A stretch of DNA of 64,000 nt from Eledone cirrhosa. Taxonomy: Eukaryota. Location of the stretch: positions 355,694,001 to 355,758,000 of the forward strand of contig OZ024741.1 in NCBI GenBank assembly GCA_964016885.1. The letters are read 5' to 3'. How positions within the stretch are numbered: position 1 is the stretch's first letter; the number at the start of each line of letters is the position of its first letter. The notes beneath the pieces were generated by a model. The model was not told the origin of the DNA. It searched no databases and was given only the letters and a program-made list of their open reading frames with translations. A program made the translations under genes and the position numbers. This document shows, piece after piece, positions 20,890 through 61,055 of this stretch.

Positions 20890-21526
20890 AAAATTCTATT
20901 TAAATTGTTGGGATACAACAAGCAAATATTTTTATAACTGATATAAAACACTCAACAAGTATTTGGAGTAAACATACGATATTAACAAATGGAAACTATA
21001 TTTACAAAACCATATCTATTTTATTATACATATTTCAAGGACACCATGTTAAATTATGGTATGCTTTCATCAGACAAAATACAATATATATCGGTTTTAT
21101 AAATAAATATTAACAAACCCTTACAAAATGCAACCATTACTGTTGGAAGCTCCCGGATAGACTATCCATGACTGCTGCTATGGTAGCAGGCAGGCCGCTG
21201 TCTTATTAGCAAACCACTTTCCACTGATTGACCTCGATGTCACGTGATTGATTCTTTTTGAATTTGCCACCGACGCAGAGGCAGTGATTTTCTCAATGGC
21301 TAGGAATTCAGTCCACGCTTTGCTATTTTCTATCCACTGAATTATTTTTTAATAAGTTTCCAGAGTCCACGCTTTGCCTGGATACTTAGATGAGAATAGT
21401 CTTCACTGACAACGGAATGATTCTCTATGTTTTCTTCGGAAAATATATTTATTCCATTCCAGAAACTAATTAGTTGGAAGTGATATTTTAGTAAGTAAGT
21501 TAATTTTATAATTTTCTTATTTTACG

Positions 21527-21619: not shown

Positions 21620-21825
21620 TATTATTATTATTAGAAAGTGAGGTTTTTTTACAAAATGGAAAAAAAACGAGGTGTCCTACACGAGTGAAAGTATAAGGAA
21701 AAAAGATGAAATCGAAAATGCAACTGGAGTCTTTTTTTAAAAAATATATTTATTTGGTTCATTTACCAGTTTCGCAGTTCTTGTGCTTTTCAAAAGTAGA
21801 ATTGAGATGGAGGGTTTGTCCCCCC

Positions 21826-27560
<5,735 letters not shown>

Positions 27561-39622: not shown

Positions 39623-39660
<38 letters not shown>

Positions 39661-40468
39661 TAAAATAATGAATAAACAAAGAAACAGTTCCTTATATTAA
39701 AAAAATTCATCATTTTACGATCGTTTCTAGGATATATATGTGTTAGAGTTGGTATGCATATTCTATAGATCTATGTACAATATTTATACAAACTATCAGA
39801 GGGAATATACATACCTACACATATATATGCTGTCTTCAGAAATAATGATATTTGTTTATTGAAAAAAACAAAGATTCAATACAATAGGCCTGGTTGGGAA
39901 CAGGTTTTGAATTGACCAATAGAGAGATAGTGAGGGTCAGGATAGTAATATAGTAGTAGAAGAACCTTAAATTATGGGTAGAGGAAGGTAGATTTCAGTT
40001 TTGGATGGAAAAGAATATTATGAATGAAGGATTATTTTAAGGAAGAAATAGGTCTTATGCTGACCTCAGAAATAATTTTATTTTTTCATTGAATAAAACC
40101 AACAAAGATCTAATATAGTCTGTCTGTTTGGTAAGAGGTTTAGAATTAACCAATAGAAAGTTAATAATTGGCCAAATGGTAATTGAAGCTTATTTTAGGG
40201 GTGAAAATAGGTCAGGTGGTCAGTAAAAGGTATACATGCAGTTGCTGTTATGAAATAGTAATGCCAATACAAATATCTAAGGTGACTAAAGTTTTAAGAT
40301 AAGAATGTTAGTGAAAAAAATACATCAATGAAAAGAATATAAATTAATTTAATTGATGGGTATATTTATATTGATAAAATTATACTAATACATAAAGATA
40401 TGATAAATAAGAGTTAGATGCAGTTGAAAAGTGCTGTTAAAGATGAGGGGAAATTAAAAGAATATAAA

Positions 40469-40512
<44 letters not shown>

Positions 40513-40546
40513 TTATACATATACATATATACATATATATACACAT

Positions 40547-40600
<54 letters not shown>

Positions 40601-40640
40601 TTATATATATACATATATATACATATCTATCTATCTATCT

Positions 40641-40996
40641 AAGGCGGGTAAAATTCCCGAGATCCATGGACGAGTTCTCTCCAGCGGTCTCTGTCCCTCA
40701 TTATCGCTGCCATATCCTGCATCTCCAACAGACCAGTGTCTGTCCTTAGGGCATCAACATATGTTAACCTTGGTCTTCCTCTTCTAGTGTGTCCATGTAG
40801 GGGCTCCCAAAGGAGCACTGAGTGCAATGTCAACTCTGGATGTCGGTGAGCATGTCCAGCCAACCTCAGTCTTCTCTGTGTCACTTTTGAGCTGACTTTT
40901 GGGATGCTCCCATACAGTGAAGGAGGCAGAGGATTTGATGCGGGAGGTTGAGACTGTGTCGATGAGTGTGGGGCTGAGAATGAATGAGACTAAAAA
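40641..40996 (-). mobile_element. RTE-like LINE 3' fragment nested in the microsatellite of PLE A minus arm
   Basis: RRLRLAGHAHRH...LLWEP...[10 protein letters not shown]...DRDRWR followed by a (TAGA)n tail. Absent from the plus arm. Confidence 0.8.
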
Positions 40997-41066
40997 ATAT
41001 ACATATATATACACATAAATACACACACATACACACATATACATATATATACATATACACATACAT

Positions 41067-41129
<63 letters not shown>

Positions 41130-41497
41130 GATATATACATGCATATATACATACATACACATACATATACACACACATATACACTTACATATACATATCA
41201 TTATTGGGGGGGGGGGGATTAAATTTATTAGTGAGAAATAGTAAATATATATAGTTTTCAAGGAACATAGAGTCATAACCTGAAGTTAAAGCATTATATA
41301 TGTTTACTTAATGGTATCAGTTTTAGGAAATGATATTTGTAAGAAGGAAAGCAAAATTATGTAGTTCATCAGTAGTAGAATATTAATTATAGGTTTATAA
41401 TTTTTAAAGCAGAAATATGTAGTTCATCAGTAGTAGAATATTAATTATAGGTTAACTAAATTAAAAATAATTTATAAATTAATTTCTAAAGTGTATA

Positions 41498-43972
41498 TTA
41501 ATTAGGTTTATAATATTTAAAGGTTTTTCTCAGTTTATGATTACACGATATTATTAATTCCTGTCGCTTATTTAATAGGATATCCTTAGATTTCATTATT
41601 TCAAAATGTTCTTGGGAACATAATCTACATTCGTTTCTACTATTTTGATAAGGGGTGGCCCTTTTGAGCACACTCCAGGTCAGGTCATATTCTATATTCC
41701 CCTTTCTATAACTATTTATTATTTCAGCTAGAGATGTTGTATTAGCTAGTGCGGCATTTTTAAAACTATGTTTGTGGGTATTAAATCTTACCTTAAATTT
41801 GTTAGAGGTAGCTCCTATATATGAATAAATTGAGTCTTTAGTGTTAACTTTACATTTATATACTATGTTATTAACAAGGCAATTTCCTTTTAATGGACAA
41901 TTTGCCTTGTTCCTACAGTTACAACTTTTCGTGAATCCTGTATCCGAGGAGATATTATGGTTAGTTTGATGTACTGGTGGTATACTCGTGGTTTTTTTAC
42001 ATTTATATGCATTATAGGCACTTATATTTTGTTTTATGTTTTTGGTTGTTGAGTAGGAGAATTTAACCGTTGATCTATTTAAGATTTGATGGTATTTGTG
42101 GTTTGGCGGGAAGTTTTTCTCTAGGATATTAAAGAATTTTTTAGGTATATTATCCTTAATTTGTAAATTAAATGGAGCATTGTTCCAAGTAACTCGTCTA
42201 TTACGGTTTCGATGTTGTTTATTGTTTTTATAGGATGCATCCTGATGTTTATTAAGAGAATTATTGTTAATGACCTCACCACACACATTTTTAGTTAGAT
42301 TTATTGATTTAGGTGTTTTAGCTTGTTTATTAGGAGTTTTATTATTAACATTTATTAGAGTTGTAGGATGAGTAGTTTTTTGAGAGTGACTATACTGTAT
42401 ATTAGAAGAGTTAGAGAAATTTGGTTTTATGTTGGTGTTTTGGGGTATAGTGTGAGTGGCATTTAGGTGTGTATGTTTCATTTGGTGTTTGTTGGTAATA
42501 TTAGGTTGTATGTTTGTAGTGTTATTGGTAGAAGGTATATATACTAATCTATTTTTGTGGCCACTTCTAGCTAGAGCTTCGTTATAAAAGGTCACATTTT
42601 TATCAAATACATCTTGGTTAGACGAAAGGTTAGAAATTCTAAGTGATATATTATATGCAAGGTTTTTAAGGATAGATTTAGGGTGATTAGATTGTGAGTG
42701 TATGTAGTGTAAATTTTGGTTGGGTTTATGGTAAGGTTGGTAAATACCCGTAGATAAGTCTAATGTTATATCTAGGAAATTAACTACTTTACTTGTGTTT
42801 TTAAATGTAATATCTAGACTATAATAGTCTTTGAGGAAAGTTCTAATAAGCTTTTTATTTTTTTCGCTCTCTGAGAGGCTAAGGTTATTGGAAAGAAGAA
42901 GACAGTCGCCACGATATAAACCACCTTTAAGGTGGGGAAAAGAAGCATTTATGTTAAAAAGAAGAAAGAGGCCCACAAGATCAGTAATTTGGGCAGAATC
43001 GCTTGAGCCCATAGTAATATCGAATAGATTACTATATGTGTTTCTGGTCCAGTAGTCATTCTGAAATTCCAATAGTGTTAGTCTAGCATGTGTAATAATA
43101 TTAATGTCATCCAAAGTTAAGTTAGATCTATTTTTAGCAAATATCCAGGCTTTGTTCACGAGTATAGGTGATATAGAAGAATAATAATTATCTATATCAA
43201 ATTGTAAAAATGAAGCAGAGGATTTATTTCTAATATTATTAAACCAGTTAATTACCTGGGATGTGTTTTCCCAGAGTGGTAAATTAACATGTTTTCTTAG
43301 TTGTGGGATGACTCTATCTAAATTTTTTTTACTAATTATTCCAATATCAGATTTGGAAGGGCATATAAGCCTTATAGAAGGATTAGAGTTAAAGTTAGAT
43401 TTATGATCTTTCAGGTTGAAGTGTGGTCTTTTCAATGCCAAAGGTTCAGTTCTATCTTCAATATTAAGTCTATTCACTATGCTGTGTGTTTTGTTGTTGA
43501 TGTTGGTAAGTGACGCATTATTTGTTTTTCTATAATTTTTCCTGAGTTCTTTATATATGAACTCATTGTAATTTTCAATATCCATGTGATATAGATTTCC
43601 AGTTTTGTCCGAGTGGACATGGATTTTTTTAGATTTTTTTAGGTCCAATAGGGTAGAATCAAGGTCCTTTTGAAAATTAGATTTATACCTCTTAAATTTG
43701 AGGTGTTTGATTAAATTAAAAAGGTCTTTCTCAAAGTTTTCAAGTAAGGAGTTGTGTGGTGGATTTTTATATGTAGTGAAATCATACAAATATTTCCTAT
43801 CAGTACATTTTGTTTTTTTATCGAAGTGGTAGGCCCTCCATCTGATTCTTCTGATAAATTGGTTGGTTTTTTGTATCATAAGAAGTAAGAAATCATCCTT
43901 AGAAGGTAATGGTATATTCTTTAAAGAAGTTCCCAAGTATTGTTTTTCCATTGTGATATGGATAATGGACAA
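41498..43972 (-). CDS. Naiad-type PLE RT + GIY-YIG ORF (element A, minus arm); open but catalytic motif is YRGD
   Basis: 824-aa ORF with KNIPLP...RIRWRA, QFDID, TMGSSDS, LYRGD, CNCRNKANCPLKGNC, IVY...YIG, FKVR, CRLC. Confidence 0.9.
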   Translation of the reverse strand: MSIIHITMEKQYLGTSLKNIPLPSKDDFLLLMIQKTNQFIRRIRWRAYHFDKKTKCTDRKYLYDFTTYKNPPHNSLLENFEKDLFNLIKHLKFKRYKSNFQKDLDSTLLDLKKSKKIHVHSDKTGNLYHMDIENYNEFIYKELRKNYRKTNNASLTNINNKTHSIVNRLNIEDRTEPLALKRPHFNLKDHKSNFNSNPSIRLICPSKSDIGIISKKNLDRVIPQLRKHVNLPLWENTSQVINWFNNIRNKSSASFLQFDIDNYYSSISPILVNKAWIFAKNRSNLTLDDINIITHARLTLLEFQNDYWTRNTYSNLFDITMGSSDSAQITDLVGLFLLFNINASFPHLKGGLYRGDCLLLSNNLSLSESEKNKKLIRTFLKDYYSLDITFKNTSKVVNFLDITLDLSTGIYQPYHKPNQNLHYIHSQSNHPKSILKNLAYNISLRISNLSSNQDVFDKNVTFYNEALARSGHKNRLVYIPSTNNTTNIQPNITNKHQMKHTHLNATHTIPQNTNIKPNFSNSSNIQYSHSQKTTHPTTLINVNNKTPNKQAKTPKSINLTKNVCGEVINNNSLNKHQDASYKNNKQHRNRNRRVTWNNAPFNLQIKDNIPKKFFNILEKNFPPNHKYHQILNRSTVKFSYSTTKNIKQNISAYNAYKCKKTTSIPPVHQTNHNISSDTGFTKSCNCRNKANCPLKGNCLVNNIVYKCKVNTKDSIYSYIGATSNKFKVRFNTHKHSFKNAALANTTSLAEIINSYRKGNIEYDLTWSVLKRATPYQNSRNECRLCSQEHFEIMKSKDILLNKRQELIISCNHKLRKTFKYYKPN

Positions 43973-45108
43973 GAAAAAGAGCTCAACTATTTGTATATGG
44001 AGTTATAAAGTTATACACATATATGTATATATATATAAATATATATACACATACAATATAAAAATAAGAGTATCCCCATGAAAATAGGAGCAAAGTATGT
44101 AGATAAATCTACCAAAAGTTTACGGTAGTGTCCAATCCGTATGAAGAACTCAATGTAATCCGGATATCATGAAAAGAGAAGATGCATTCAAAAACTACTT
44201 TCGGTGAAAAATAAACGGAAAACAGAGTCAAGATAAATTAATAAAATAATGAATAAACAAAGAAACAGTTCCTTATATTAAAAAAATTCATCATTTTACG
44301 ATCGTTTCTAGGATATATATGTGTTAGAGTTGGTATGCATATTCTATAGATCTATGTACAATATTTATACAAACTATCAGAGGGAATATACATACCTACA
44401 CATATATACGCTGTCTTCAGAAATAATGAAATTTGTTTATTGAAAAAAACAAAGATTCAATACAATAGGTCAGTTTGGGAACAGGTTTTGAATTGACCAA
44501 TAGAGAGATAGTGAGGGTCAGGATAGTAACCTTAGTAGAAGAACCTTAAATTATGGGTAGAGGAAGGTAGATTTCTGTTTTGGATGGAAAAGAATATTAT
44601 GAATGAAGGATTATTTTAGGGAAGAAATAGGTCTTATGCTGACCTCAGAAATAATTTTATTTTTTCAATGAATAAAACCAAGAAAGATCTAATATATTCT
44701 GTCTGTTTGGTAAGAGGTTTAGAATTAACCAATAGAAAGTTAATAATTGGCCAAATAGTAAAATAGTAGTAATTGAAGCTTATTTAATGATGAATTTTTT
44801 TAATATAAGGAACTGTTTCTTTGTTTATTCATTATTTTATTAATTTATCTTGACTCTGTTTTCCGTTTATTTTTCACCGAAAGTAGTTTTTGAATGCATC
44901 TTCTCTTTTCATGATATCCGGATTACATTGAGTTCTTCATACGGATTGGACACTACCGTAAACTTTTGGTAGATTTATCTACATACTTTGCTCCTATTTT
45001 CATGGGGATACTCTTATTTTTATATTGTATGTGTATATATATTTATATATATATACATATATGTGTATAACTTTATAACTCCATATACAAATAGTTGAGC
45101 TCTTTTTC

Positions 45109-47584
45109 TTGTCCATTATCCATATCACAATGGAAAAACAATACTTGGGAACTTCTTTAAAGAATATACCATTACCTTCTAAGGATGATTTCTTACTTCT
45201 TATGATACAAAAAACCAACCAATTTATCAGAAGAATCAGATGGAGGGCCTACCACTTCGATAAAAAAACAAAATGTACTGATAGGAAATATTTGTATGAT
45301 TTCACTACATATAAAAATCCACCACACAACTCCTTACTTGAAAACTTTGAGAAAGACCTTTTTAATTTAATCAAACACCTCAAATTTAAGAGGTATAAAT
45401 CTAATTTTCAAAAGGACCTTGATTCTACCCTATTGGACCTAAAAAAATCTAAAAAAATCCATGTCCACTCGGACAAAACTGGAAATCTATATCACATGGA
45501 TATTGAAAATTACAATGAGTTCATATATAAAGAACTCAGGAAAAATTATAGAAAAACAAATAATGCGTCACTTACCAACATCAACAACAAAACACACAGC
45601 ATAGTGAATAGACTTAATATTGAAGATAGAACTGAACCTTTGGCATTGAAAAGACCACACTTCAACCTGAAAGATCATAAATCTAACTTTAACTCTAATC
45701 CTTCTATAAGGCTTATATGCCCTTCCAAATCTGATATTGGAATAATTAGTAAAAAAAATTTAGATAGAGTCATCCCACAACTAAGAAAACATGTTAATTT
45801 ACCGCTCTGGGAAAACACATCCCAGGTAATTAACTGGTTTAATAATATTAGAAATAAATCCTCTGCTTCATTTCTACAATTTGATATAGATAATTATTCT
45901 TCTTCTATATCACCTATACTCGTGAACAAAGCCTGGATATTTGCTAAAAATAGATCTAACTTAACTTTGGATGACATTAATATTATTACACATGCTAGAC
46001 TAACACTATTGGAATTTCAGAATGACTACTGGACCAGAAACACATATAGTAATCTATTCGATATTACTATGGGCTCAAGCGATTCTGCCCAAATTACTGA
46101 TCTTGTGGGCCTCTTTCTTCTTTTTAACATAAATGCTTCTTTTCCCCACCTTAAAGGTGGTTTATATCGTGGCGACTGTCTTCTTCTTTCCAATAACCTT
46201 AGCCTCTCAGAGCGCGAAAAAAATAAAAAGCTTATTAGAACTTTCCTCAAAGACTATTATAGTCTAGATATTACATTTGAAAACACAAGTAAAGTAATTA
46301 ATTTCCTAGATATAATATTAGACTTATCTACGGGTATTTACCAACCTTACCATAAACCCAACCAAAATTTACACTACATACACTCACAATCTAATCACCC
46401 TAAATCTATCCTTAAAAACCTTGCATATAATATATCACTTAGAATTTCTAACCTTTCGTCTAACCAAGATGTATTTGATAAAAATGTGACCTTTTATAAC
46501 GAAGCTCTAGCTAGAAGTGGCCACAAAAATAGATTAGTATATATACCTTCTACCAATAACACTACAAACATACAACCTAATATTACCAACAAACACCAAA
46601 TGAAACATACACACCTAAATGCCACTCACACTATACCCCAAAACACCAACATAAAACCAAATTTCTCTAACTCTTCTAATATACAGTATAGTCACTCTCA
46701 AAAAACTACTCATCCTACAACTCTAATAAATGTTAATAATAAAACTCCTAATAAACAAGCTAAAACACCTAAATCAATAAATCTAACTAAAAATGTGTGT
46801 GGTGAGGTCATTAACAATAATTCTCTTAATAAACATCAGGATGCATCCTATAAAAACAATAAACAACATCGAAACCGTAATAGACGAGTTACTTGGTACA
46901 ATGCTCCATTTAATTTACAAATTAAGGATAATATACCTAAACAATTCTTTAATATCCTAGAGAAAAACTTCCCGCCAAACCACAAATACCATCAAATCTT
47001 AAATAGATCAACGGTTAAATTCTCCTACTCAGCAACCAAAAACATAAAACAAAATATAAGTGCCTATAATGCATATAAATGTAAAAAAAACCATGAGTAT
47101 ACCACCAGTACATCAAACTAACCATAATATCTCCTCAGATACAGGATTCACGAAAAGTTGTAACTGTAGAAACAAGGCAAATTGTCCATTAAAAGGAAAT
47201 TGCCTTGTTAATAACATAGTATATAAATGTAAAGTTAACACTAAGGACTCAATTTATTCATATATAGGAGCTACCTCTAACAAATTTAAGGTAAGATTTA
47301 ATACCCACAAACATAGTTTTAAAAATGCCGCACTAGCTAATACAACATCTCTAGCTGAAATAATAAATAGTTATAGAAAGAGGAATATAGAATATGACCT
47401 GACCTGGAGTGTGCTCAAAAGGGCCACCCCTTATCAAAATAGTAGAAACGAATGTAGATTATGTTCCCAAGAACTTTTTGAAATAATGAAATCTAAGGAT
47501 ATCCTATTAAATAAGCGACAGGAATTAATAATATCGTATAATCATAAACTGAGAAAAACCTTTAAATATTATAAACCTAATTAA
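45109..47584 (+). pseudogene. Naiad-type PLE RT + GIY-YIG ORF (element A, plus arm), frameshifted near 47090
   Basis: Near-identical to 41498-43972. An extra A in the poly-A run at ~47083-47090 splits it into ORFs 45109-47121 and 47060-47584. Also YRGD. Confidence 0.9.
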
Positions 47585-48063
47585 TATACACTTTAGAAAT
47601 TAATTTATAAATTATTTTTAATTTAGTTAACCTATAATTAATATTCTACTACTGATGAACTACATATTTCTGCTTTAAAAATTATAAACCTATAATTAAT
47701 ATTCTACTACTGATGAACTACATATTTCTGCTTTAAAAATTATATACCTAATTAATATACACTTTTGAAATTAATATATAAACTACTTTTAATTTAGTTA
47801 ACCTATAATTAATATTCTACTACTGATGAACTACATAATTTTGCTTTCCTTCTTACAAATATCATTTCCTAAAACTGATACCATTAAGTAAACATATATA
47901 ATGCTTTAACTTCAGGTTATGACTCTATGTTCCTTGAAAACTATATATATTTACTATTTCTCACTAATAAATTTAATCCCCTCCCCCAATAATTATATGT
48001 ATATGTAAGTCTATATATGTGTGTATATGTATGTGTATGTATGTATATATGCATGTATATATC

Positions 48064-48168
<105 letters not shown>

Positions 48169-48956
48169 ATGTATGTGTATATGTATATATATGTATATGT
48201 GTGTATGTGTGTGTATGTATGTGTATATGTATATATATGTATATGTGTGTATGTGTGTGTATGTATGTGTATATATATGTATATATATGTATATATATAA
48301 GTGTATATATATATATATATAATTTTTATATTCTTTTAATTTCCCCTCATCTTTAACAGCACTTTTCAACTGCATCTAACTCTTATTTATCATATCTATA
48401 TGTATTAGTATAATTTTATCAATATAAATATACCCATCAATTAAATTAATTTATATTCTTTTCACAGATGTATTTTTTTCACTAACATTCTTATCTTAAA
48501 ACTTTAGTCACCTTAGATATTTGTATTGGCATTACTATTTTATAACAGCAACTGCATGTATACCTTTTACTGACCACCTGACCTATTTTCACCCCTCAAA
48601 TAAGCTTCAATTACTACTATTTTACCATTTGGCCAATTATTAACTTTCTATTGGTCAATTCTAAACCTCTTACCAAACAGACAGAATATATTAGATCATT
48701 GTTGGTTTTATTCAATGAAAAAATAAAATTATTTCTGAGGTCAGCATAAGACCTATTTCTTCCCTAAAATAATCCTTCATTCATAATATTCTTTTCCATC
48801 CAAAACTGAAATCTACCTTCCTCTACCCATAATTTAAGGTTCTTCTACTACTATATTACTATCCTGACCCTCACTATCTCTCTATTGGTCAATTCAAAAC
48901 CTGTTCCCAAACAGACCTATTGTATTGAATCTTTGTTTTTTGTCAATAAACAAATA

Positions 48957-49098
48957 TCATTATTTCTGAAGACAGCATATATATGTGTAGGTATGTATAT
49001 TCCCTCTGATAGTTTGTATAAATATTGTACATAGATCTATAGAATATGCATACCAACTCTAACACATATATATCCTAGAAACGATCGTAAAATGATGA
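48957..49098 (+). ncRNA. Type I hammerhead ribozyme with ~105-nt stem II (PLE A); copies at 39707-39848 (-) and 44288-44429 (-)
   Basis: Stem I tcattattt/aaatgatga; CUGAAGA; stem II includes atatatatgtgt/acacatatatat and ggtatgtatattc/gaatatgcatacc; GAAA; palindromic acgatcgt; GUA triplet at 49087-49089. Confidence 0.75.
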
Positions 49099-49288
49099 AT
49101 TTTTTTAATATAAGGAACTGTTTCTTTGTTTATTCATTATTTTATTAATTTATCTTGACTCTGTTTTCCGTTTATTTTTCACCGAAAGTAGTTTTTGAAT
49201 GCATCTTCTCTTTTCATGATATCCGGATTACATTGAGTTCTTCATACGGATTGGACACTACCGTAAACTTTTGGTAGATTTATCTACA

Positions 49289-49344
<56 letters not shown>

Positions 49345-49346
<2 letters not shown>

Positions 49347-49830
49347 GAATATAAAAGAAAAACGAACACAGATATATAGATATGTGTTCAAATCGTAAGG
49401 GACCGGATTCGCTAAGGTGAAAAGAATACTAACTATAGACAATTGGGTTTGCTTGTCTCAATTTAAGGAAAAATTAAGAAAATAAATACAACTTGTCGTT
49501 GTTTCGCAATGTTAATTGTGAATAGAATTACTAATTCAAGCTCATCAGTGGGTGATAAATTAGTATCCTAGACACTTCTAAGTATATTAAGAAAATTAAA
49601 ATAGTGTGCCACTGATGAGCTTGAATTAGTAATTCTATTCACAATTAACATTGCGAAACAACAACAAGCTGTATTTATTTTCTTAATTTTTCCTTATATT
49701 GAGACAAGCAAACCCAATTGTCTATAGTTAGTATTCTTTTCACCTTAGCGAATCCGGTCCCTTACGATTTGAACACATATATGTATATGTCTGTGTTTGT
49801 TGTATTCTATTATAATATACGACTCGGAAA
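49345..49830. mobile_element. Fold-back PLE 3'-end remnant with hammerhead-like core in both arms
   Basis: 49345-49552 is inverted relative to 49609-49815. CUGAUGA-gc...gc-GAAACAAC-gacaa-GUUGUA is present, but no stem I is evident. TA-flanked. Confidence 0.7.
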
Positions 49831-50035: not shown

Positions 50036-51410
50036 TATATAGGAACCAGTAAGACCCCGACAGCTGAGCTCAAGCCGTTTCGACGGCTAATTCTGGACTA
50101 AATGAAAATTTATCCTGGTATTTAAATAGCCGATCTTCTCAAGGGGTAATTCCATATATGGTCAAAGTGATTGTCAAAAATCAGTAGTAATTCTGTGGTT
50201 GCAAATTAGTAGGGGAGATGGTGGCTAAACCTGCCAGTAGGAGAAAGAGGGGAGGGGGTGGAGTAGACCCAATCCAGCGTTGGTAGTGCCAGCTACAGCT
50301 GGGCATGAGGTCAAAGAAGATACAGGGGAGGGGGAGGGGGAGGAAGTCGGAACGGTAGGTAGAACAATGGGGGGTAGAAATAGGAAAGAAAAAGTACTGA
50401 GAGTGAAGAAAAGCAAATAAGTGTAAAGAAAAAAGTAAAGTAAATTAAATTCTACGACCTAGGTCTCAGGCTATTGTTAGGCTAGAATAAAATAAATAAA
50501 GAAAGAAAGAAGTAAAGAAATAAATAAATAAAGAAATAACGAAATAAGTAAAAGAACTAGGTGGGACGGAATAGGCAAGGACCCTTTTAAGAGGTATAAG
50601 TACGTAAATGATACGGTGACGGGTCAACAAAAGGGGCCAAAATACTAAAGAGACTACCACGAAATAAACAATAAAGGTTTCCATCGCGGGCCAGCAACGA
50701 CCCAGTGCAGCAAAGTGAACTTGTACGAGATAATAATTCTGAGTCCCGAGAAAAATATATACTAATGCTAACTCTAAAAGATCTAAAACAAGCTACATGA
50801 AAGTTCGTACGAAATAAAGGTAGAATACGGAGAAATAAATTCAGAATCCACCCCGCCCAGAAGAAAAGCGAAGCAAGAAATACTGAAACGAAAAAATAAG
50901 GCATAAGTGCCACTAAGAAATATAGAGGGCACCGAGAATAGTGGGAGCGGTCGGAAAAAGGGGGCAAGTATCCGGGGTCTAAGCCAACTGCTATAAAGAG
51001 CGGAGTCCGCCAAATCTATCATAGACTAGGGGAGGGGGTGGTGGGGGTACTTTCTTTCTTTCTTTATTTTATTCTAGCCTAACAATAGCCTGAGACCTAG
51101 GTCGTAGAATTTAATTTACTTTACTTTTTTCTTTACACTTATTTGCTTTTCTTCACTCTCAGTACTTTTTCTTTCCTATTTCTACCCCCCATTGTTCTAC
51201 CTACCGTTCCGACTTCCTCCCCCTCCCCCTCCCCTGTATCTTCTTTGACCTCATGCCCAGCTGTAGCTGGCACTACCAACGCTGGATTGGGTCTACTCCA
51301 CCCCTCCCCTCTTTCTCCTACTGGCAGGTTTAGCCACCATCTCCCCTACTAATTTGCAACCACAGAATTACTACTGATCTTTGACAATCACTTTGACCAT
51401 ATATGGAATT

Positions 51411-51504
51411 ACCCCTTGAGAAGATCGGCTATTTAAATACCAGGATAAATTTTCATTTAGTCCAGAATTAGCCGTCGAAACGGCTTGAGCTCAGCTGTCG
51501 GGGT
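51411..51504 (+). ncRNA. Type I hammerhead ribozyme, U3-A8 core variant (PLE B); copies at 54954-55047 (+) and 50054-50147 (-)
   Basis: Stem I acccc/ggggt; core UUGAGAA; stem II ga-t-cggcta...tagccg-tc; GAAA; stem III acggc/gctgt; GUC cleavage triplet at 51497-51499. Confidence 0.75.
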
Positions 51505-51689
51505 CTTACTGGTTCCTATTACCCACTCTACTACCTCAAGTATTGAGTACTTTGGTGCGTTATGGTCCACCTGGTTCCTTACCACATTTCCTTCGTTATC
51601 TAGCTCCTACTCCCGTAGTAGAGCACTTTCCGACCCTACCACGCCGTATCCAGACTTTTCCGCTAAGCTCAATTCATTTCACCCGCACC

Positions 51690-53855
51690 ATGCGAAAACA
51701 CAACATTGACTTCTCTACCAAGAACATCCCAATCCCACCGAAAAAACTTTACCTTCGGATGCTCACGCAAAAAATCGATCTATTTGCGAAAAGACTTAGA
51801 TGGAGAACTTTTTTCTATGACAGATATTGCGACAACCAAGACTTCGGCACCAAGGAGAGATTCGGATTTATTACCTACAAATCTCCGCCCCTGAACCCCT
51901 TGCTCGCACCCTTCGAGAATGACCTCTTCCAACTGGTCAAGAACATTAAATTTAAACCCAGACACAACCGATTCCTACAAAAACTCCGTAGCAACTTAAC
52001 AGAGTATGATAACACAAATGACATCATGGTGCATTCGGATAAAGCTGGGAACCTATACTTTGTCAACCCTGACAGATACCACACACTGATCAGGAGCAGC
52101 CTAAACTCCACCTATAAAAAGGCCAACCACTCTTGCATCGAGGACATAAATCGAGATGGACAACAAATCACCTCCAGCCTCGGGGTCGCCGACCGCACGG
52201 AACCTCTAGACCCACGGACACCATACTTCACACTGAAGGACCATAAATCCGATTTTGACCGTAAACCCTCTATCAGGCTTATTAACCCAACGAAGTCCGA
52301 CATAGGGAGAATCAGCAAAAAAATCCTAGACCGCGTGATACCAAAAGTCAAGCAACACACCCGACTTAGCCTATGGATCAACACCCAGGAAGTAATCTCC
52401 TGGTTCAGCAATATGGAGGATAAACGAGAAACTAAATTCATACAGTTCGACATAGAGAGCTACTATGCTTCAATCACCTTACCGCTACTTACTGCCGCCT
52501 TGGACTTCGCCGAAACACTTGTGCCCATCACCGACCAGGAAAGAAAAATCATCCTCCACGCCAGGAAGACAGTCTTACTCTTTGACGACTCTAAATGGAT
52601 AAAAAGAGCTCCCGACTCACCCTTCGACGTCAGCATGGGCGCCACGGATTCGGCGGAGGTCACAGATCTTATAGGATTATTCCTAATAGCCAAACTCACT
52701 GATATGTTTCCTGCATTCGGTGGTGGATTGTACCGTGATGATGGGCTCCTTACCCTTAAAGGGTACAACCCCAGTAGTACAGATCGGGTCCGGAAACAAT
52801 TAATCAGATTCTTCCGCGACTGGGGATTTAAAATAACCCTACAAACGTCCCCGACCCGAGTAAACTTCCTGGACGTGACCCTCGACCTCGAAAACGACCT
52901 GTACTACCCATACAGGAAACCTAATGACAATCTGCACTACATCCACCGCCGATCAAACCATCCTAGGAACATCACAAACAACCTGGTCAAAAACATCTCC
53001 CTCCGCATATCCCGTTTGTCAGCTAATGAGCGGATATTCGATGAACATGCGCCTTATTACAACCAGGCCCTCAAGCGGAGTGGTTTCCGGGAGGAAATAT
53101 CCTACTGTCCAGCTCCCATTAGCGGAACCAGCAGGAGACACCGCCGCTCACGCAATGTAACATGGTTCAATCTTCCCCACAACGCAGAGGTGACAACTCC
53201 CATCGGGAAACTATTATTTAGGCTCATTGAAAAACACTTCCCATTACAACACCGCTACCACAACATAATTAACAAAAATACCATCAAACTCTCTTACAGC
53301 ACTACACCAAACTTCGCACAAAACATCGTCTCCTCTAACAACAAAAAACTCAACCCCGATGGCAGAAATAACCTAAATAGCAGTGGAGAACCGACCAGGA
53401 GGTGTAACTGCCCGGATAGATCTATTTGCCCACTCGACAATAGATGCAGAGACCGTAATGTGATCTACCAGTGCAACGTGAGGACGGATACCTCCAACAA
53501 AGCCTATATAGGACTTACCGCATGTGACTTCAAGACCCGGCTATACCAACATAGACATACCTTCCGAAACCCGGCCCGGCGTCACGCCACTACACTTTCG
53601 TGCCACATATGGGACCTCAAGGACAACAACATCACCTATGATCTCACTTGGAGATTACTGTCCAGAGCCAATTCTTACACGGGAGGACGCCGTCCGTGCA
53701 ATTTATGCTCGGAGGAAACTTTACAAACGCTGTTTTCGACGGACCAACTCCTAAACAAGAAAGATGAACTGGTCACTGCATGTAAACATAGATTGCGTAG
53801 GACTTACCTCGCCCTCAAACCCCATAATGACCCGGGGGGGGGGGGGGTAGACTAG
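51690..53855 (+). CDS. Penelope-like (Naiad-type) RT + GIY-YIG endonuclease, apparently intact (element B)
   Basis: KNIPIP...RLRWR N-terminus, SDKAGN, QFDIESYY, SMGATDS, catalytic LYRDD, VNFLDV, YRKP, SNHP, CNC-x5-CPL-x3-C linker, VIY...YIG, FKTR, CxLC-xxE, LLNK. No stops or frameshifts. Confidence 0.93.
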   Translation: MRKHNIDFSTKNIPIPPKKLYLRMLTQKIDLFAKRLRWRTFFYDRYCDNQDFGTKERFGFITYKSPPLNPLLAPFENDLFQLVKNIKFKPRHNRFLQKLRSNLTEYDNTNDIMVHSDKAGNLYFVNPDRYHTLIRSSLNSTYKKANHSCIEDINRDGQQITSSLGVADRTEPLDPRTPYFTLKDHKSDFDRKPSIRLINPTKSDIGRISKKILDRVIPKVKQHTRLSLWINTQEVISWFSNMEDKRETKFIQFDIESYYASITLPLLTAALDFAETLVPITDQERKIILHARKTVLLFDDSKWIKRAPDSPFDVSMGATDSAEVTDLIGLFLIAKLTDMFPAFGGGLYRDDGLLTLKGYNPSSTDRVRKQLIRFFRDWGFKITLQTSPTRVNFLDVTLDLENDLYYPYRKPNDNLHYIHRRSNHPRNITNNLVKNISLRISRLSANERIFDEHAPYYNQALKRSGFREEISYCPAPISGTSRRHRRSRNVTWFNLPHNAEVTTPIGKLLFRLIEKHFPLQHRYHNIINKNTIKLSYSTTPNFAQNIVSSNNKKLNPDGRNNLNSSGEPTRRCNCPDRSICPLDNRCRDRNVIYQCNVRTDTSNKAYIGLTACDFKTRLYQHRHTFRNPARRHATTLSCHIWDLKDNNITYDLTWRLLSRANSYTGGRRPCNLCSEETLQTLFSTDQLLNKKDELVTACKHRLRRTYLALKPHNDPGGGGVD

Positions 53856-55138
53856 GGCTATAACACCCCACTTGCCGATTTTGCAATGGGTAACCCCTGC
53901 TTGCCAAGGAAGACGTAAGATCTTTGTATTCTTTTATCGCTTCCTTTATTTCCTTCCCCCCTCTCTCCTTAGTCCTTCTACTCCAGCTCTTCTCCTTTGT
54001 CGGCGTCTTTTCTCGCCCACCCGAGGCTGCCCTTTGGCCCCATGTAGCCTTAGTACCCCCACCACCCCTCCCCTAGTCTATGATAGATTTGGCGGACTCC
54101 GCTCTGTATAGCAGTTGGCTTAGACCCCGGATACTTGCCCCCTTTTTCCGACCGCTCCCACTATTCTCGGTGCCCTCTATATTTCTTAGTGGCACTTATG
54201 CCTTATTTTTTCGTTTCAGTATTTCTTGCTTCGCTTTTCTTCTGGGCGGGGTGGATTCTGAATTTATTTCTCCGTATTCTACCTTTATTTCGTACGAACT
54301 TTCATGTAGCTTGTTTTAGATCTTTTAGAGTTAGCATTAGTATATATTTTTCTCGGGACTCAGAATTATTATCTCGTACAAGTTCACTTTGCTGCACTGG
54401 GTCGTTGCTGGCCCGCGATGGAAACCTTTATTGTTTATTTCGTGGTAGTCTCTTTAGTATTTTGGCCCCTTTTGTTGACCCGTCACCGTATCATTTACGT
54501 ACTTATACCTCTTAAAAGGGTCCTTGCCTATTCCGTCCCACCTAGTTCTTTTACTTATTTCGTTATTTCTTTATTTATTTATTTCTTTACTTCTTTCTTT
54601 CTTTCTTTATTTTATTCTAGCCTAACAATAGCCTGAGACCTAGGTCGTAGAATTTAATTTACTTTACTTTTTTCTTTACACTTATTTGCTTTTCTTCACT
54701 CTCAGTACTTTTTCTTTCCTATTTCTACCCCCCATTGTTCTACCTACCGTTCCGACTTCCTCCCCCTCCCCCTCCCCTGTATCTTCTTTGACCTCATGCC
54801 CAGCTGTAGCTGGCACTACCAACGCTGGATTGGGTCTACTCCACCCCTCCCCTCTTTCTCCTACTGGCAGGTTTAGCCACCATCTCCCCTACTAATTTGC
54901 AACCACAGAATTACTACTGATTTTTGACAATCACTTTGATCATATATGGAATTACCCCTTGAGAAGATCGGCTATTTAAATACCAGGATAAATTTTCATT
55001 TAGTCCAGAATTAGCCGTCGAAACGGCTTGAGCTCAGCTGTCGGGGTCTTACTGGTTCCTATTACCCACTCTACTACCTCAAGTATTGAGTACTTTGGTG
55101 CGTTATGGTCCACCTGGTTCCTTACCACATTTCCTTCG

Positions 55139-55989: not shown

Positions 55990-57331
<1,342 letters not shown>

Positions 57332-57335
<4 letters not shown>

Positions 57336-60300
57336 AAAGTTATATTTAAAATTGTTGGGTTACAACTAGTAAATATTTATAACTGATATAAAAGCACTCG
57401 ACAAATATTTGGAGTATATTTACAATATTAAATAAATGGAAACTATATTTATAAAACCATATATATTTCATTATATATATTTCAGGGATATCATATTAAC
57501 AATATGCTATGCCTTCCTCAGACAAAATACAATATAAACAGTTTTATAGATAAATAGATTCGACATACCGTAACAACATCAACTTGCATTTGAAGAGGTT
57601 GATTTGGCAGTGAAAAAATTGTACACAGAGAGAAAGAAAGAGAGAAAAAAGAAAGAAAGATAGAAAACGAAGAAAAGGAAGAAAAGAAGAAATGCATTGA
57701 ACAAAATAGAGAGATGGAAAGATAGATAAAGAGAAGAACTTCATGTAAAGAAACAGAAAGATATATATATATATAGAGAGAGAGGAAATAGAGATAGATA
57801 CATATATATATAGAAAATTAGGTAGTGGGAGGTCTGTTGAGTAAATGTATCAATGATACATTTATTTATTTATTTATTTATTTAGCTCTAGTATTAATGT
57901 AAGGGAGATATATATATAGAGAAAAAAAATATATATAGAGAAAAAATATAGCGAGAGAAAAAATAAAAAAATAACCAGATATATGCGAGGCGTAAAAACC
58001 CTATGTTTTAACGTAGAGATATTAGTATTTATAAAACATCCACTATATTGTAAATATCAGTATTCCTGAATGAGACAAGTATCCATAGTGTGTGAAAATT
58101 AATGATCTTATGTTTAGTTTTTTAAAAAAATTCATATGTTTATGTGATAGCTACAAACATCCATGTGAATCTACATGATCAACTCTGCAAACCCTAAGTT
58201 CACGGAAAACATTCTCAATGTGGTATAAAAATTTGAGTATACATATATGTGTATTATTATTCCTGTCTTTACTCTACAAGATTATCTATCAAGCAGAAAT
58301 AGAGAGCAGATTTCAATATACTAATAAAAATATATATCAGAAACAAAACTAAAAAATAACAATAATAATAATAAGTAATAATAAAATAGAAAACTAAAAA
58401 AATATTACGAAAGAATATTACATATTAAAAATATTACATATTAAAAAATTTACATATTAAAAATATTAAAAATAAAAATATTAGAAAATACTACAATAAT
58501 TAAAAAAAAAAAAAAAAAAAAAAATAATAAAAAAAATAAATAATAAATAAAAATAAAAAATAAACCACAAAGATCAACCCTTCAAAATTAATTGACAATA
58601 TATTGCCAAGTTCATTATAAGCATCAGAGTCGAAAAACAGATAAAGCCAAAAATTATCTATCAAATCACATCTAGCAAAGATCATTTCAAAAAGTTTAGG
58701 ATGCCCAATTTGGTCTACATGTGTTCTTATATTTAATATAGAAGTTTATCTAGTGTAACGTTTATTCGAAATATTTGGAGCATCAGCTTTTAGGGTAGCT
58801 TAATTTTTCATGAGGAATGTTTAAATAAAAATAAAAATAAAAATAAAAATAAAAAATAAAAAAATAAAAAAAGAATAAAAAGAAGGAATCAAAGATTTAT
58901 CGGCTAGTTTCCCATATAAATATAAATCAAACTAAATATACTACATTTTAAATTTAAATTTATATTTAAACGTTGAGTTTAATCTATGTTTGCAACAACT
59001 GAATAAATTTGTCAATAGACATACAATAAAATTAACCTACTCATCCACCAAAAATTTAGCACAAAATATTAATAGAATAAATAATAGGAACTTAAAACCT
59101 AGTGATAATAGCATAAATAATATACAAGTTAACAAATGTAACTGTAGAGATAGATCTAAATGTCCGTTAAATAACAACTGCTTACTTAAAAATATAGTAT
59201 ACAATTGTAATGTTAATACTGACTCTAATTCTTTTAACTACGTCGGTTCCACATCGACGGAATTTAAACTTCGCTATAATAACCACAAGAATTCTTTCAC
59301 AGATCCAAGCAAAAAATCTTCAACGGCACTATCAGGCGTACTCTGGCAACTTAAGCTAGATAACGTTAGATATTCGACGGCTTGGAATATAGTCTCAAGA
59401 GGGATTCCTTTTAATTCATCCTCTGAGACATGTGACCTCTGCGCAGAGGAGATATTCTTTATACTAAAATCTAAAAATTCCCTTAATCTACGGACAAATT
59501 TATTCAGTTGTTGCAAACATAGATTAAACTCAACGTTTAAATATAAATTTAAATTTAAAATGTAGTATATTTAGTTTGATTTATATTTATATGGGAAACT
59601 AGCCGATAAATCTTTGATTCCTTCTTTTTATTCTTTTTTTCTTTTTTTATTTTTTATTTTTATTTTTATTTAAACATTCCTCATGAAAAATTAAGCTACC
59701 CTAAAAGCTGATGCTCCAAATATTTCGAATAAACGTTACACTAGATAAACTTCTATATTAAATATAAGAACACATGTAGACCAAATTGGGCATCCTAAAC
59801 TTTTTGAAATGATCTTTGCTAGATGTGATTTGATAGATAATTTTTGGCTTTATCTGTTTTTCGACTCTGATGCTTATAATGAACTTGGCAATATATTGTC
59901 AATTAATTTTGAAGGGTTGATCTTTGTGGTTTATTTTTTATTTTTATTTATTATTTATTTTTTTATTATTTTTTTATTTTTTATTATTGTAGTATTTTCT
60001 AATATTTTTATTTTTAATATTTTTAATATGTAAATTTTTTAATATGTAATATTTTTAATATGTAATATTCTTTCGTAATATTTTTTTAGTTTTCTATTTT
60101 ATTATTACTTATTATTATTATTGTTTTTTTTTAGTTTTGTTTCTGATATATATTTTTATTAGTATATTGATATCTGCTCTCTATTTCTGCTTGATAGATA
60201 ATCTTGTAGAGTAAAGACAGGAATAATAATACACATATATGTATACTCAAATTTTTATACCACATTGAGAATGTTTTCCGTGAACCTAGGGTTTGCAGAG

Positions 60301-61055
60301 TTGATCATGTAGATTCACATGGATGTTTGTAGCTATCACATAAACATATGAATTTTTAAAAAAAACTAAACATAAGATCATTAATTTTCACACACTATGG
60401 ATACTTGTCTCATTCAGGAATACTGATATTTACAATATAGTGGATGTTTCATAAATACTAATATCTCTACGTTAAAACATAGGGTTTTTACGCCTCGCAT
60501 ATATCTGGTTATTTTTAAATTTTTTCTCTCGCTATATTTTTTCTCTCTCTATATTTTTTTTCTCTCTCTATATATCTCCCTTACATTAATACTAGAGCTA
60601 AATAAATAAATAAATAAATGTATCATTGATACATTTACTCAACAGACCTCCCACTACCTAATTTTCTATATATATATATGTATCTATCTCTATTTCCTCT
60701 CTCTCTATATATATATATCTCATTCTGTTTCTTTACATGAAGTTCTTCTCTTTATCTATCTTTCCATCTCTCTATTTTGTTCAATGCATTTCTTCTTTTT
60801 CTTCCTTTTCTTCGTTTTCTGTCTTTCTTTCTTTTTTCTCTCTTTCTTTCTCTCTGTGTACAATTTTTTCACTGCCAAATCAACCTCTTCAAATGCAAGT
60901 CGATGTTGTTACGGTATGTCGAATCTATTTATCTATAAAACTGTTTATATTGTATTTTGTCTGAGGAAGGCATAGCATATTGTTAATATGATATCCCTGA
61001 AATATATATAATGAAATAGATATGGTTTCATAAATATAGTTTCCATTTTTTTAAT

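Follow-up and report, generated by a model that had tools for sequence, protein, structure and literature searches.

The role of the hammerhead ribozymes in Penelope-like elements (PLEs) is described as 'still unclear' by Craig et al. (2021, PMC8557442), in whose Hydra clade many of the features of the element analysed here (family A) can be found. As presented in the sections of that paper used for comparison, the clade has an RT with a GIY-YIG endonuclease joined to it C-terminally, a DKT motif, a CxCX5C linker, CxxC and CxH motifs around conserved E and N, no CCHH, (TA)n targets, a pLTR hammerhead, an inverted 5'-truncated neighbour and a tail at one end. All of these recur in family A, which is inserted in (TA)n and whose 817-aa ORF, read by eye against section 11 of the paper, holds RWR, DKT, CxCX5C, CxxC and CxH and lacks CCHH. 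Set against the clade as described there, family A differs in having RWR in place of RWK (a conservative change), a unit of 4.3 kb rather than 'generally <3 kb', a tail of 139 nt rather than 30-40 nt, a hammerhead whose stem II, of 105 nt, is closed by a mismatched pair, and thousands of copies. A Pfam search with two PLE ORFs gave zero matches, so that the PLE assignment is made without profile support; judged by its motifs, family A is a Hydra-clade PLE.

Minimal or atypical hammerheads of the dimer type have been described in metazoan PLEs (Cervera and De la Pena, 2014, PMC4209133), and family A shares with them the type I form, the conserved core and the palindromic helix III, as well as the occurrence of many solo copies and of close pairs on opposite strands. 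In the portions of that study compared here, however, stem II has 6-8 bp, whereas that of family A is far longer, and where those hammerheads have G10.1-C11.1 family A has C-A or, as a minor variant, U-A. For Poseidon PAc from Anolis (Frangieh et al., 2024, PMC11167929), the tail is bounded by two internal start sites of the RT, as in family A, and uncleaved RNA was the main substrate in vitro, which is also what the genomic ends of family A suggest. The hammerhead of Poseidon PAc overlaps the start of the ORF, whereas the family A cut site lies 345 nt upstream of the ATG, and the small excess of ends at the cut in family A sets it apart from Poseidon PAc as reported in the excerpts of that paper considered here. 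Finally, the position of cleavage by the 5' HDV-like ribozyme of R2 correlates with genomic 5' junctions, according to the part of Eickbush et al. (2013, PMC3774820) drawn on here; this is a known case of the model proposed for family A in the preliminary description. Family A differs from R2 in that about 2% of its copies have their end at the cut, the main 5' end being upstream of the ribozyme. In a literature search, thin on subscription papers, no study was found that had set the genomic 5' ends of PLEs against an initiator or the hammerhead cut.

The head-to-head locus and its hammerheads

The window is a 64,000-nt stretch of Eledone cirrhosa DNA (GCA_964016885.1, contig OZ024741.1), in which family A is present as a head-to-head PLE pair inserted in (TA)n (Table 1). 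Positions are given relative to the predicted cut, with +1 at window 49090 and -1 at 49089. The marks of an EN+ PLE were found, namely a single ORF with RT and C-terminal GIY-YIG (motifs by eye), a pLTR from a partial tandem, an inverted 5'-truncated neighbour and a tail at one end.

Table 1. Features of the family A locus and of a second inverted pair in the window.
Feature	Position	Strand	Remarks
Minus arm	39652..44785	-	5' end -491 (44785 = 48598), full ORF, 3' end +64 then (TA)n
Minus arm 3' hammerhead	39707..39848	-	intact; core starts 39839
ORF, 817 aa, unbroken	41498..43951	-	RT + C-terminal GIY-YIG endonuclease; motifs read by eye in translation
Minus arm 5' hammerhead	44288..44429	-	intact; predicted cut 44297/44296
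Head-to-head junction	44785..44786		-491 joined to +2, zero shared bases
Plus arm	44786..49292	+	5' end +2, ORF from 45130 frameshifted, 3' end +203 (tail) then (TA)n
Type I hammerhead, plus arm 3' pLTR	48957..49098	+	intact; predicted cut 49089/49090
Initiator-like motif TCA(+1)TT	48957..48961	+	A = 48959, position -131 (44427 on minus arm); putative transcription start
Family C, inverted PLE pair	57330..61052		hammerheads 57521 (-), 60961 (+); initiator-like motif A at 60871

The preliminary description placed the start of the plus arm next to the predicted hammerhead cut, and this was borne out: the sequence from 44786 onward is identical to that from 49091 onward over 202 of 202 nt (repeat family D8), and since the cut is predicted after GUA 49087-49089, with 49090 as the first base of the 3' product, the arm starts one nucleotide later, at +2. 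Neither side of the 44785/44786 junction showed microhomology. The plus arm was itself copied through its own 3' pLTR hammerhead (core at 48966, +), which is intact, as are the cores at 44420 (-) and 39839 (-) of the minus arm, so that three of the four hammerhead positions of the locus are uncleaved; the uncleaved 5' copy that had been pointed out on the minus arm is indeed complete.

The plus-arm frameshift is due to one extra A near 47083. In place of the catalytic YRDD, both arms have YRGD (at window 46172 and the mirrored site of the minus arm); all five YRGD matches fell at this locus and the other 39 matches all retain the first Asp. Over 3,155 positions the arms share 10 variants unseen in the other sampled copies, with one more in the 3' region, and differ from each other at 18 positions. 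Such shared private variants point to one source locus that moved in trans or to later gene conversion between the arms, and are a misfit with two unrelated templates. In a similar comparison of 19 short pairs, which has low discriminating power, the arms had three rare alleles in common and differed 221 times.

As a motif, the hammerhead proposed in the preliminary description holds up, its cleavage activity being a prediction. The conserved core (C3-A9, G12-A15.1, U16.1, H17) is complete in the window copies and lies, in the plus-arm 3' hammerhead, at 48966-48972 and 49078-49081; of 112 copies retrieved by a pattern that itself demanded core-like sequence, 106 had the same 5' core and 100 the same 3' core. 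Stem I pairs over 9-10 bp, or over 7 bp in an RNA that begins at -131. For stem III there is an 8-nt self-complementary palindrome (49081-49088), which permits a dimer fold, and the explicit dimeric fold was the cofold minimum, at -89.0 kcal/mol compared with -77.6 kcal/mol for two monomers. Stem II, of about 105 nt, does not have the R10.1-Y11.1 closure that is usually G-C: in the commonest variant (77/112) its closing pair is a C-A mismatch, 4/112 copies have U-A, and a subfamily swaps the next pair from A-U to G-C. A search of the window against Rfam returned no hammerhead family among its 19 matches at E<=1, made up of one hairpin and of microRNA models that had matched simple repeats.

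Several other elements were seen in the window. Tandem 58-nt units in the 3' UTR (47560-47847 and 41348-41522) contain the 5' half of a hammerhead core; the plus arm has three of them, the minus arm two and other copies one to three. Directly after the (TA)n of the plus arm lies a long, near-perfect inverted repeat (about 49360-49810), which gave a weak MIR5998 match in Rfam, below threshold, and is likely to be another head-to-head fragment pair or a MITE. A third PLE (50039-55062) has an inverted-repeat layout and an unbroken 788-aa ORF (51489-53855) with YRDD, DKA and a similar C-terminal endonuclease; the hammerhead core pattern had zero matches in it. Hammerhead-like cores also occur at 21073 (-) and 35318 (+), and the ORF list indicates LINE-like RT frames at 21697-24770 and a PLE-like fragment at 24903-25901 (together 21697-25901).

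Genomic 5' ends at the predicted cut

In the 3.0-Gb genome, 4,035 matches to an anchor at +4..+29 formed the set at risk of ending at the cut. Ends in the cut window (-2..+4) were retrieved with a pattern requiring a mismatch at both -4 and -3, which had 116 matches; 100 were listed and 99 distinct ones examined (sampled copies in this work being largely first-listed matches on contig C1), and 64 of the 99 proved to be true breaks, 16 matches being unseen. For an upstream control window (-14..-9; 4,224 at risk) there were 56 matches, 55 of them distinct, and 40 true breaks, 37 identified by script and three as inverted junctions re-read by eye; a downstream control (+27..+32; 1,958 at risk) gave 17 among 30 matches. 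The cut window was therefore in excess by 1.72-fold (p 0.0027, pooled) with the 16 unseen matches taken as non-ends, or 2.0-fold when scaled; some pairs contribute both of their arms to these counts, which makes the p values optimistic. Both arms start at -2..+4 in several pairs (L110, L147, L150, L155, L169 and L177). In a classification by flank, some labels of which are approximate, head-to-head ends amounted to 31/4,035 at the cut against 25/4,224 and 12/1,958 in the controls (1.3-fold, p 0.35-0.62, not significant), and ends joined to (TA)n or unrelated DNA to 28/4,035 against 12/4,224 (2.4-fold, p 0.01) and 2/1,958 (6.8-fold, p 0.001). No single-base peak was found among the 64 ends within the cut window, the number of matched letters upstream of the anchor, from 0 to 5, being 5, 13, 8, 13, 9 and 16, which fits a flat spread.

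The great majority of copies (about 97-98%) read through the cut site and about 2% begin there. Among exact anchor copies, which represent the window's own subfamily, 598 of 633 keep the five nucleotides upstream, and the A at +1 is absent in four of the 633, one of them at this locus. The ORF-linked class rests on 30 loci selected at the ORF start, of which 19 read through the cut (the minus arm of this locus included), while the plus arm stops at +2, L032 at about +3 (by eye) and the rest at +10 to +249. Since about 1% of at-risk copies end in any 6-nt window of this region, a single such end is, with thousands of copies, unremarkable when taken alone. The plot of 5' truncation points that the preliminary description had proposed gave a modest excess at the cut when carried out genome-wide, but not the expected spike, and the head-to-head excess was not significant; nor do the 5' junctions pile at the cleavage site in the manner of R2. 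The pattern in the population is more informative than the junction that was flagged, which alone carries little weight, and the single 44785/44786 junction cannot be used as a footprint of cleavage in vivo.

A real excess at the cut could have arisen through microhomology or fold-back, if the sequence at -2..+3, a TA and an A-run, pairs with (TA)n, with the T-run at +10..+16 or with the 5' strand of stem I, and we give this explanation a little less than an even chance. Junctions of the kind it calls for were found, with -128 joined to +2 exactly across stem I in L184 and the A-run joined to the T-run in L156, L158, L162, L179 and L180, and the distribution of the TA-flanked ends is compatible with a flat one. 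As the downstream control lacks a TA dinucleotide, its contrast with the cut window is inflated, but the upstream control also has TA and yet fewer TA-flanked ends (5 compared with 17). At the 44785/44786 junction itself there is no microhomology, so this route does not explain the present locus.

The absence of microhomology at a +2 start is, on the other hand, in keeping with reverse transcription of the plus arm to the 5' end of a self-cleaved RNA, with one base lost on joining. The excess of ends in the cut window is consistent with the same origin, as is the dimer fold, the predicted minimum for two copies; the full transcript would carry a hammerhead at each end, and the passages of PMC11167929 on Anolis report that the PLE protein enabled hammerhead cleavage in vitro. 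Against it, the excess of head-to-head ends is not significant, the 17 TA-flanked ends include 10 in the exact +1 classes where a flat spread predicts 8.5, and in the same plus arm copying went through a 3' hammerhead that was uncut. The commonest variant, furthermore, has C-A at a position where G10.1-C11.1 is highly conserved, and minimal PLE hammerheads cleave poorly in vitro (both as stated in the portions of PMC4209133 used here). Given that the excess makes up about 20% of the head-to-head ends and that microhomology can explain part of it, we consider it unlikely that this plus arm came from cleaved RNA. Of the footprint of self-cleavage that had been read into the junction, the hammerhead motif and a modest excess of ends are left standing; the extent of read-through and a dominant end about 130 nt upstream speak against the remainder.

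The main 5' end upstream of the hammerhead

To describe this dominant end, three position-ordered samples were combined (124 loci); with 16 repeats and 22 loci without the motif set aside, 86 distinct copies reach the 5' core, of which 51 read through, 26 end at -127..-133 and nine carry a SINE there. The commonest end in family A was -131, the A of TCA(+1)TT (eight copies), and none of the 26 extended beyond -133. This pile had about 0.043 ends per nucleotide, the cut 0.004 and the controls 0.002, so that the rate in the pile was about 10 times that at the cut; the comparison uses an estimated detection correction of 0.7. We take TCA(+1)TT to match the metazoan initiator consensus. An Inr-like TCACT has been described in the pLTR of a rotifer PLE, in the part of PMC3846280 cited. 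This motif, the A of which is the commonest end, is the likely start of the RNA; in family A it overlaps stem I and so its conservation is confounded.

The SINE is about 170 nt long, presumably tRNA-like, and sits at the 5' stem of the hammerhead (about -131) with differing 5' truncations and some tandem copies (L078, L081, L084, L188, L193, L195, L277 and L384). Its 3' end had 103,667 matches in the genome, and 30 of 30 sampled 3' ends, retrieved with a pattern that itself demanded the hexamer, open with the AT-rich hexamer found at the -131 site. Its AT-rich tail or target preference, together with its copy number, roughly explains its presence there. Copies with a common upstream flank at -130 were considered as a subfamily and rejected, the flank being SINE insertions.

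A second family in the window (family C), with a short and well-paired hammerhead and 44,098 anchor matches, served as a replicate. A sample of 60 loci, two of them repeats, gave 58 distinct copies, 39 of which were at risk; 13 end at -1..+8 of a YCA(+1)CT motif that precedes the cut by about 140 nt, although some of these belong as two arms to one and the same pair. The motif is passed by 26 copies, and 19 stop downstream of it, several of the latter belonging to diverged subfamilies and not being true ends. The 5' edge of this pile is sharp, and the motif, about 80 nt upstream of stem I, is kept in most read-through copies with differing flanks (exceptions L401, L411 and L424). No pile was found at stem I or the ribozyme of family C, 53 of 56 core-holding copies reading through stem I, and at the cut a sample of 30 copies included one that ends at about +1..+4 (L403) and one ambiguous case (L413). 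Since the ends of family C pile at the initiator-like motif and not at the ribozyme, a transcription start is favoured over a structural stop. By eye, stem II of family C varies between subfamilies yet stays paired. In L399 and L418 the 3' half of the hammerhead core is absent through the same short deletion, and these are possibly a ribozyme-dead subfamily that still spread.

A stop of the RT or a DNA nick at the 5' strand of stem I (paired in trans in the dimer), or an intron branch point, is an improbable source of the -131 pile: although the family A ends fall inside that strand, nine of the 86 copies have the SINE at the same site and an intron of D. virilis has one end at the 5' end of helix I (in the text of PMC4209133 referred to here), the family C pile lies at its motif some 80 nt further upstream, with a sharp edge and no counterpart at stem I, there is no strong fold just upstream of -130, and the copy number and AT-rich hexamer of the SINE roughly account, by our estimate, for its insertions.

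With about 2% of copies beginning at the cut and far more about 130 bases upstream, it is likely that mostly uncut RNA was copied. Overall, we think it probable that family A has been copied for the most part from uncut RNA that starts 131 nt upstream of the cut, and that the +2 end of the plus arm is more likely to be an ordinary 5' truncation than a trace of cleavage. Counting against this view are the excess at the cut, which is greater where the flank is (TA)n or unrelated DNA, and the pairs in which both arms start at -2..+4.

Pair geometry and the copying of family A

The arms of the pairs also differ at their 3' ends. In 55 head-to-head pairs, from loci picked for their 5' ends and not at random, exactly one arm ends near +64 in 51, both do in one and neither in three; the other arm ends at about +203 in 31 pairs and is likely to do so in most of the remaining ones, where the alignment runs on into TA. 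The tail on one arm corresponds to the tail 'at one end' in the relevant section of PMC8557442, and the +64 and +203 ends match the two internal RT start sites in that of PMC11167929. The tailed arm had the longer 5' part in six pairs, the shorter in 13 and an equal one in 12; as either arm can be 5'-longer, a strict fold-back of one cDNA was judged unlikely.

A mechanism of the following kind would fit uncut templates. The promoter of the pLTR would start the RNA at about -131, and the RT would prime at two internal sites, +64 and +203, one on either side of a break in (TA)n. The two cDNAs would stop independently at scattered places, their ends then being joined head to head or to the target, and short cDNAs primed on the 5' pLTR would run off the 5' end of the transcript at about -131. 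Most templates would be uncut, and a small cleaved minority may account for some of the 1.7-2-fold excess of ends seen at the cut.

Only tentatively do we suggest that two RNA ends formed in vivo by PLEs are recorded in this genome, a major one, found in two families, being a capped start at an initiator just 5' of the hammerhead and a minor one being formed by self-cleavage at +1. If so, the minor class would be the first genomic evidence of a PLE hammerhead cutting in vivo, an atypical, dimer-type hammerhead with a long stem II closed by C-A would be active, and the solo and opposite-strand paired hammerheads of animal genomes would be run-off products of the 5' pLTR. By these counts, no more than about 1-3% of the insertions extending to the site had cleaved RNA as their template. 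For two high-copy families they also give a candidate transcription start at a precise position, which, with the near-fixed asymmetry of one short and one tailed arm in the pairs, constrains models of PLE integration. The genomic counts point in the same direction as one in vitro system, in which cleavage is dispensable.
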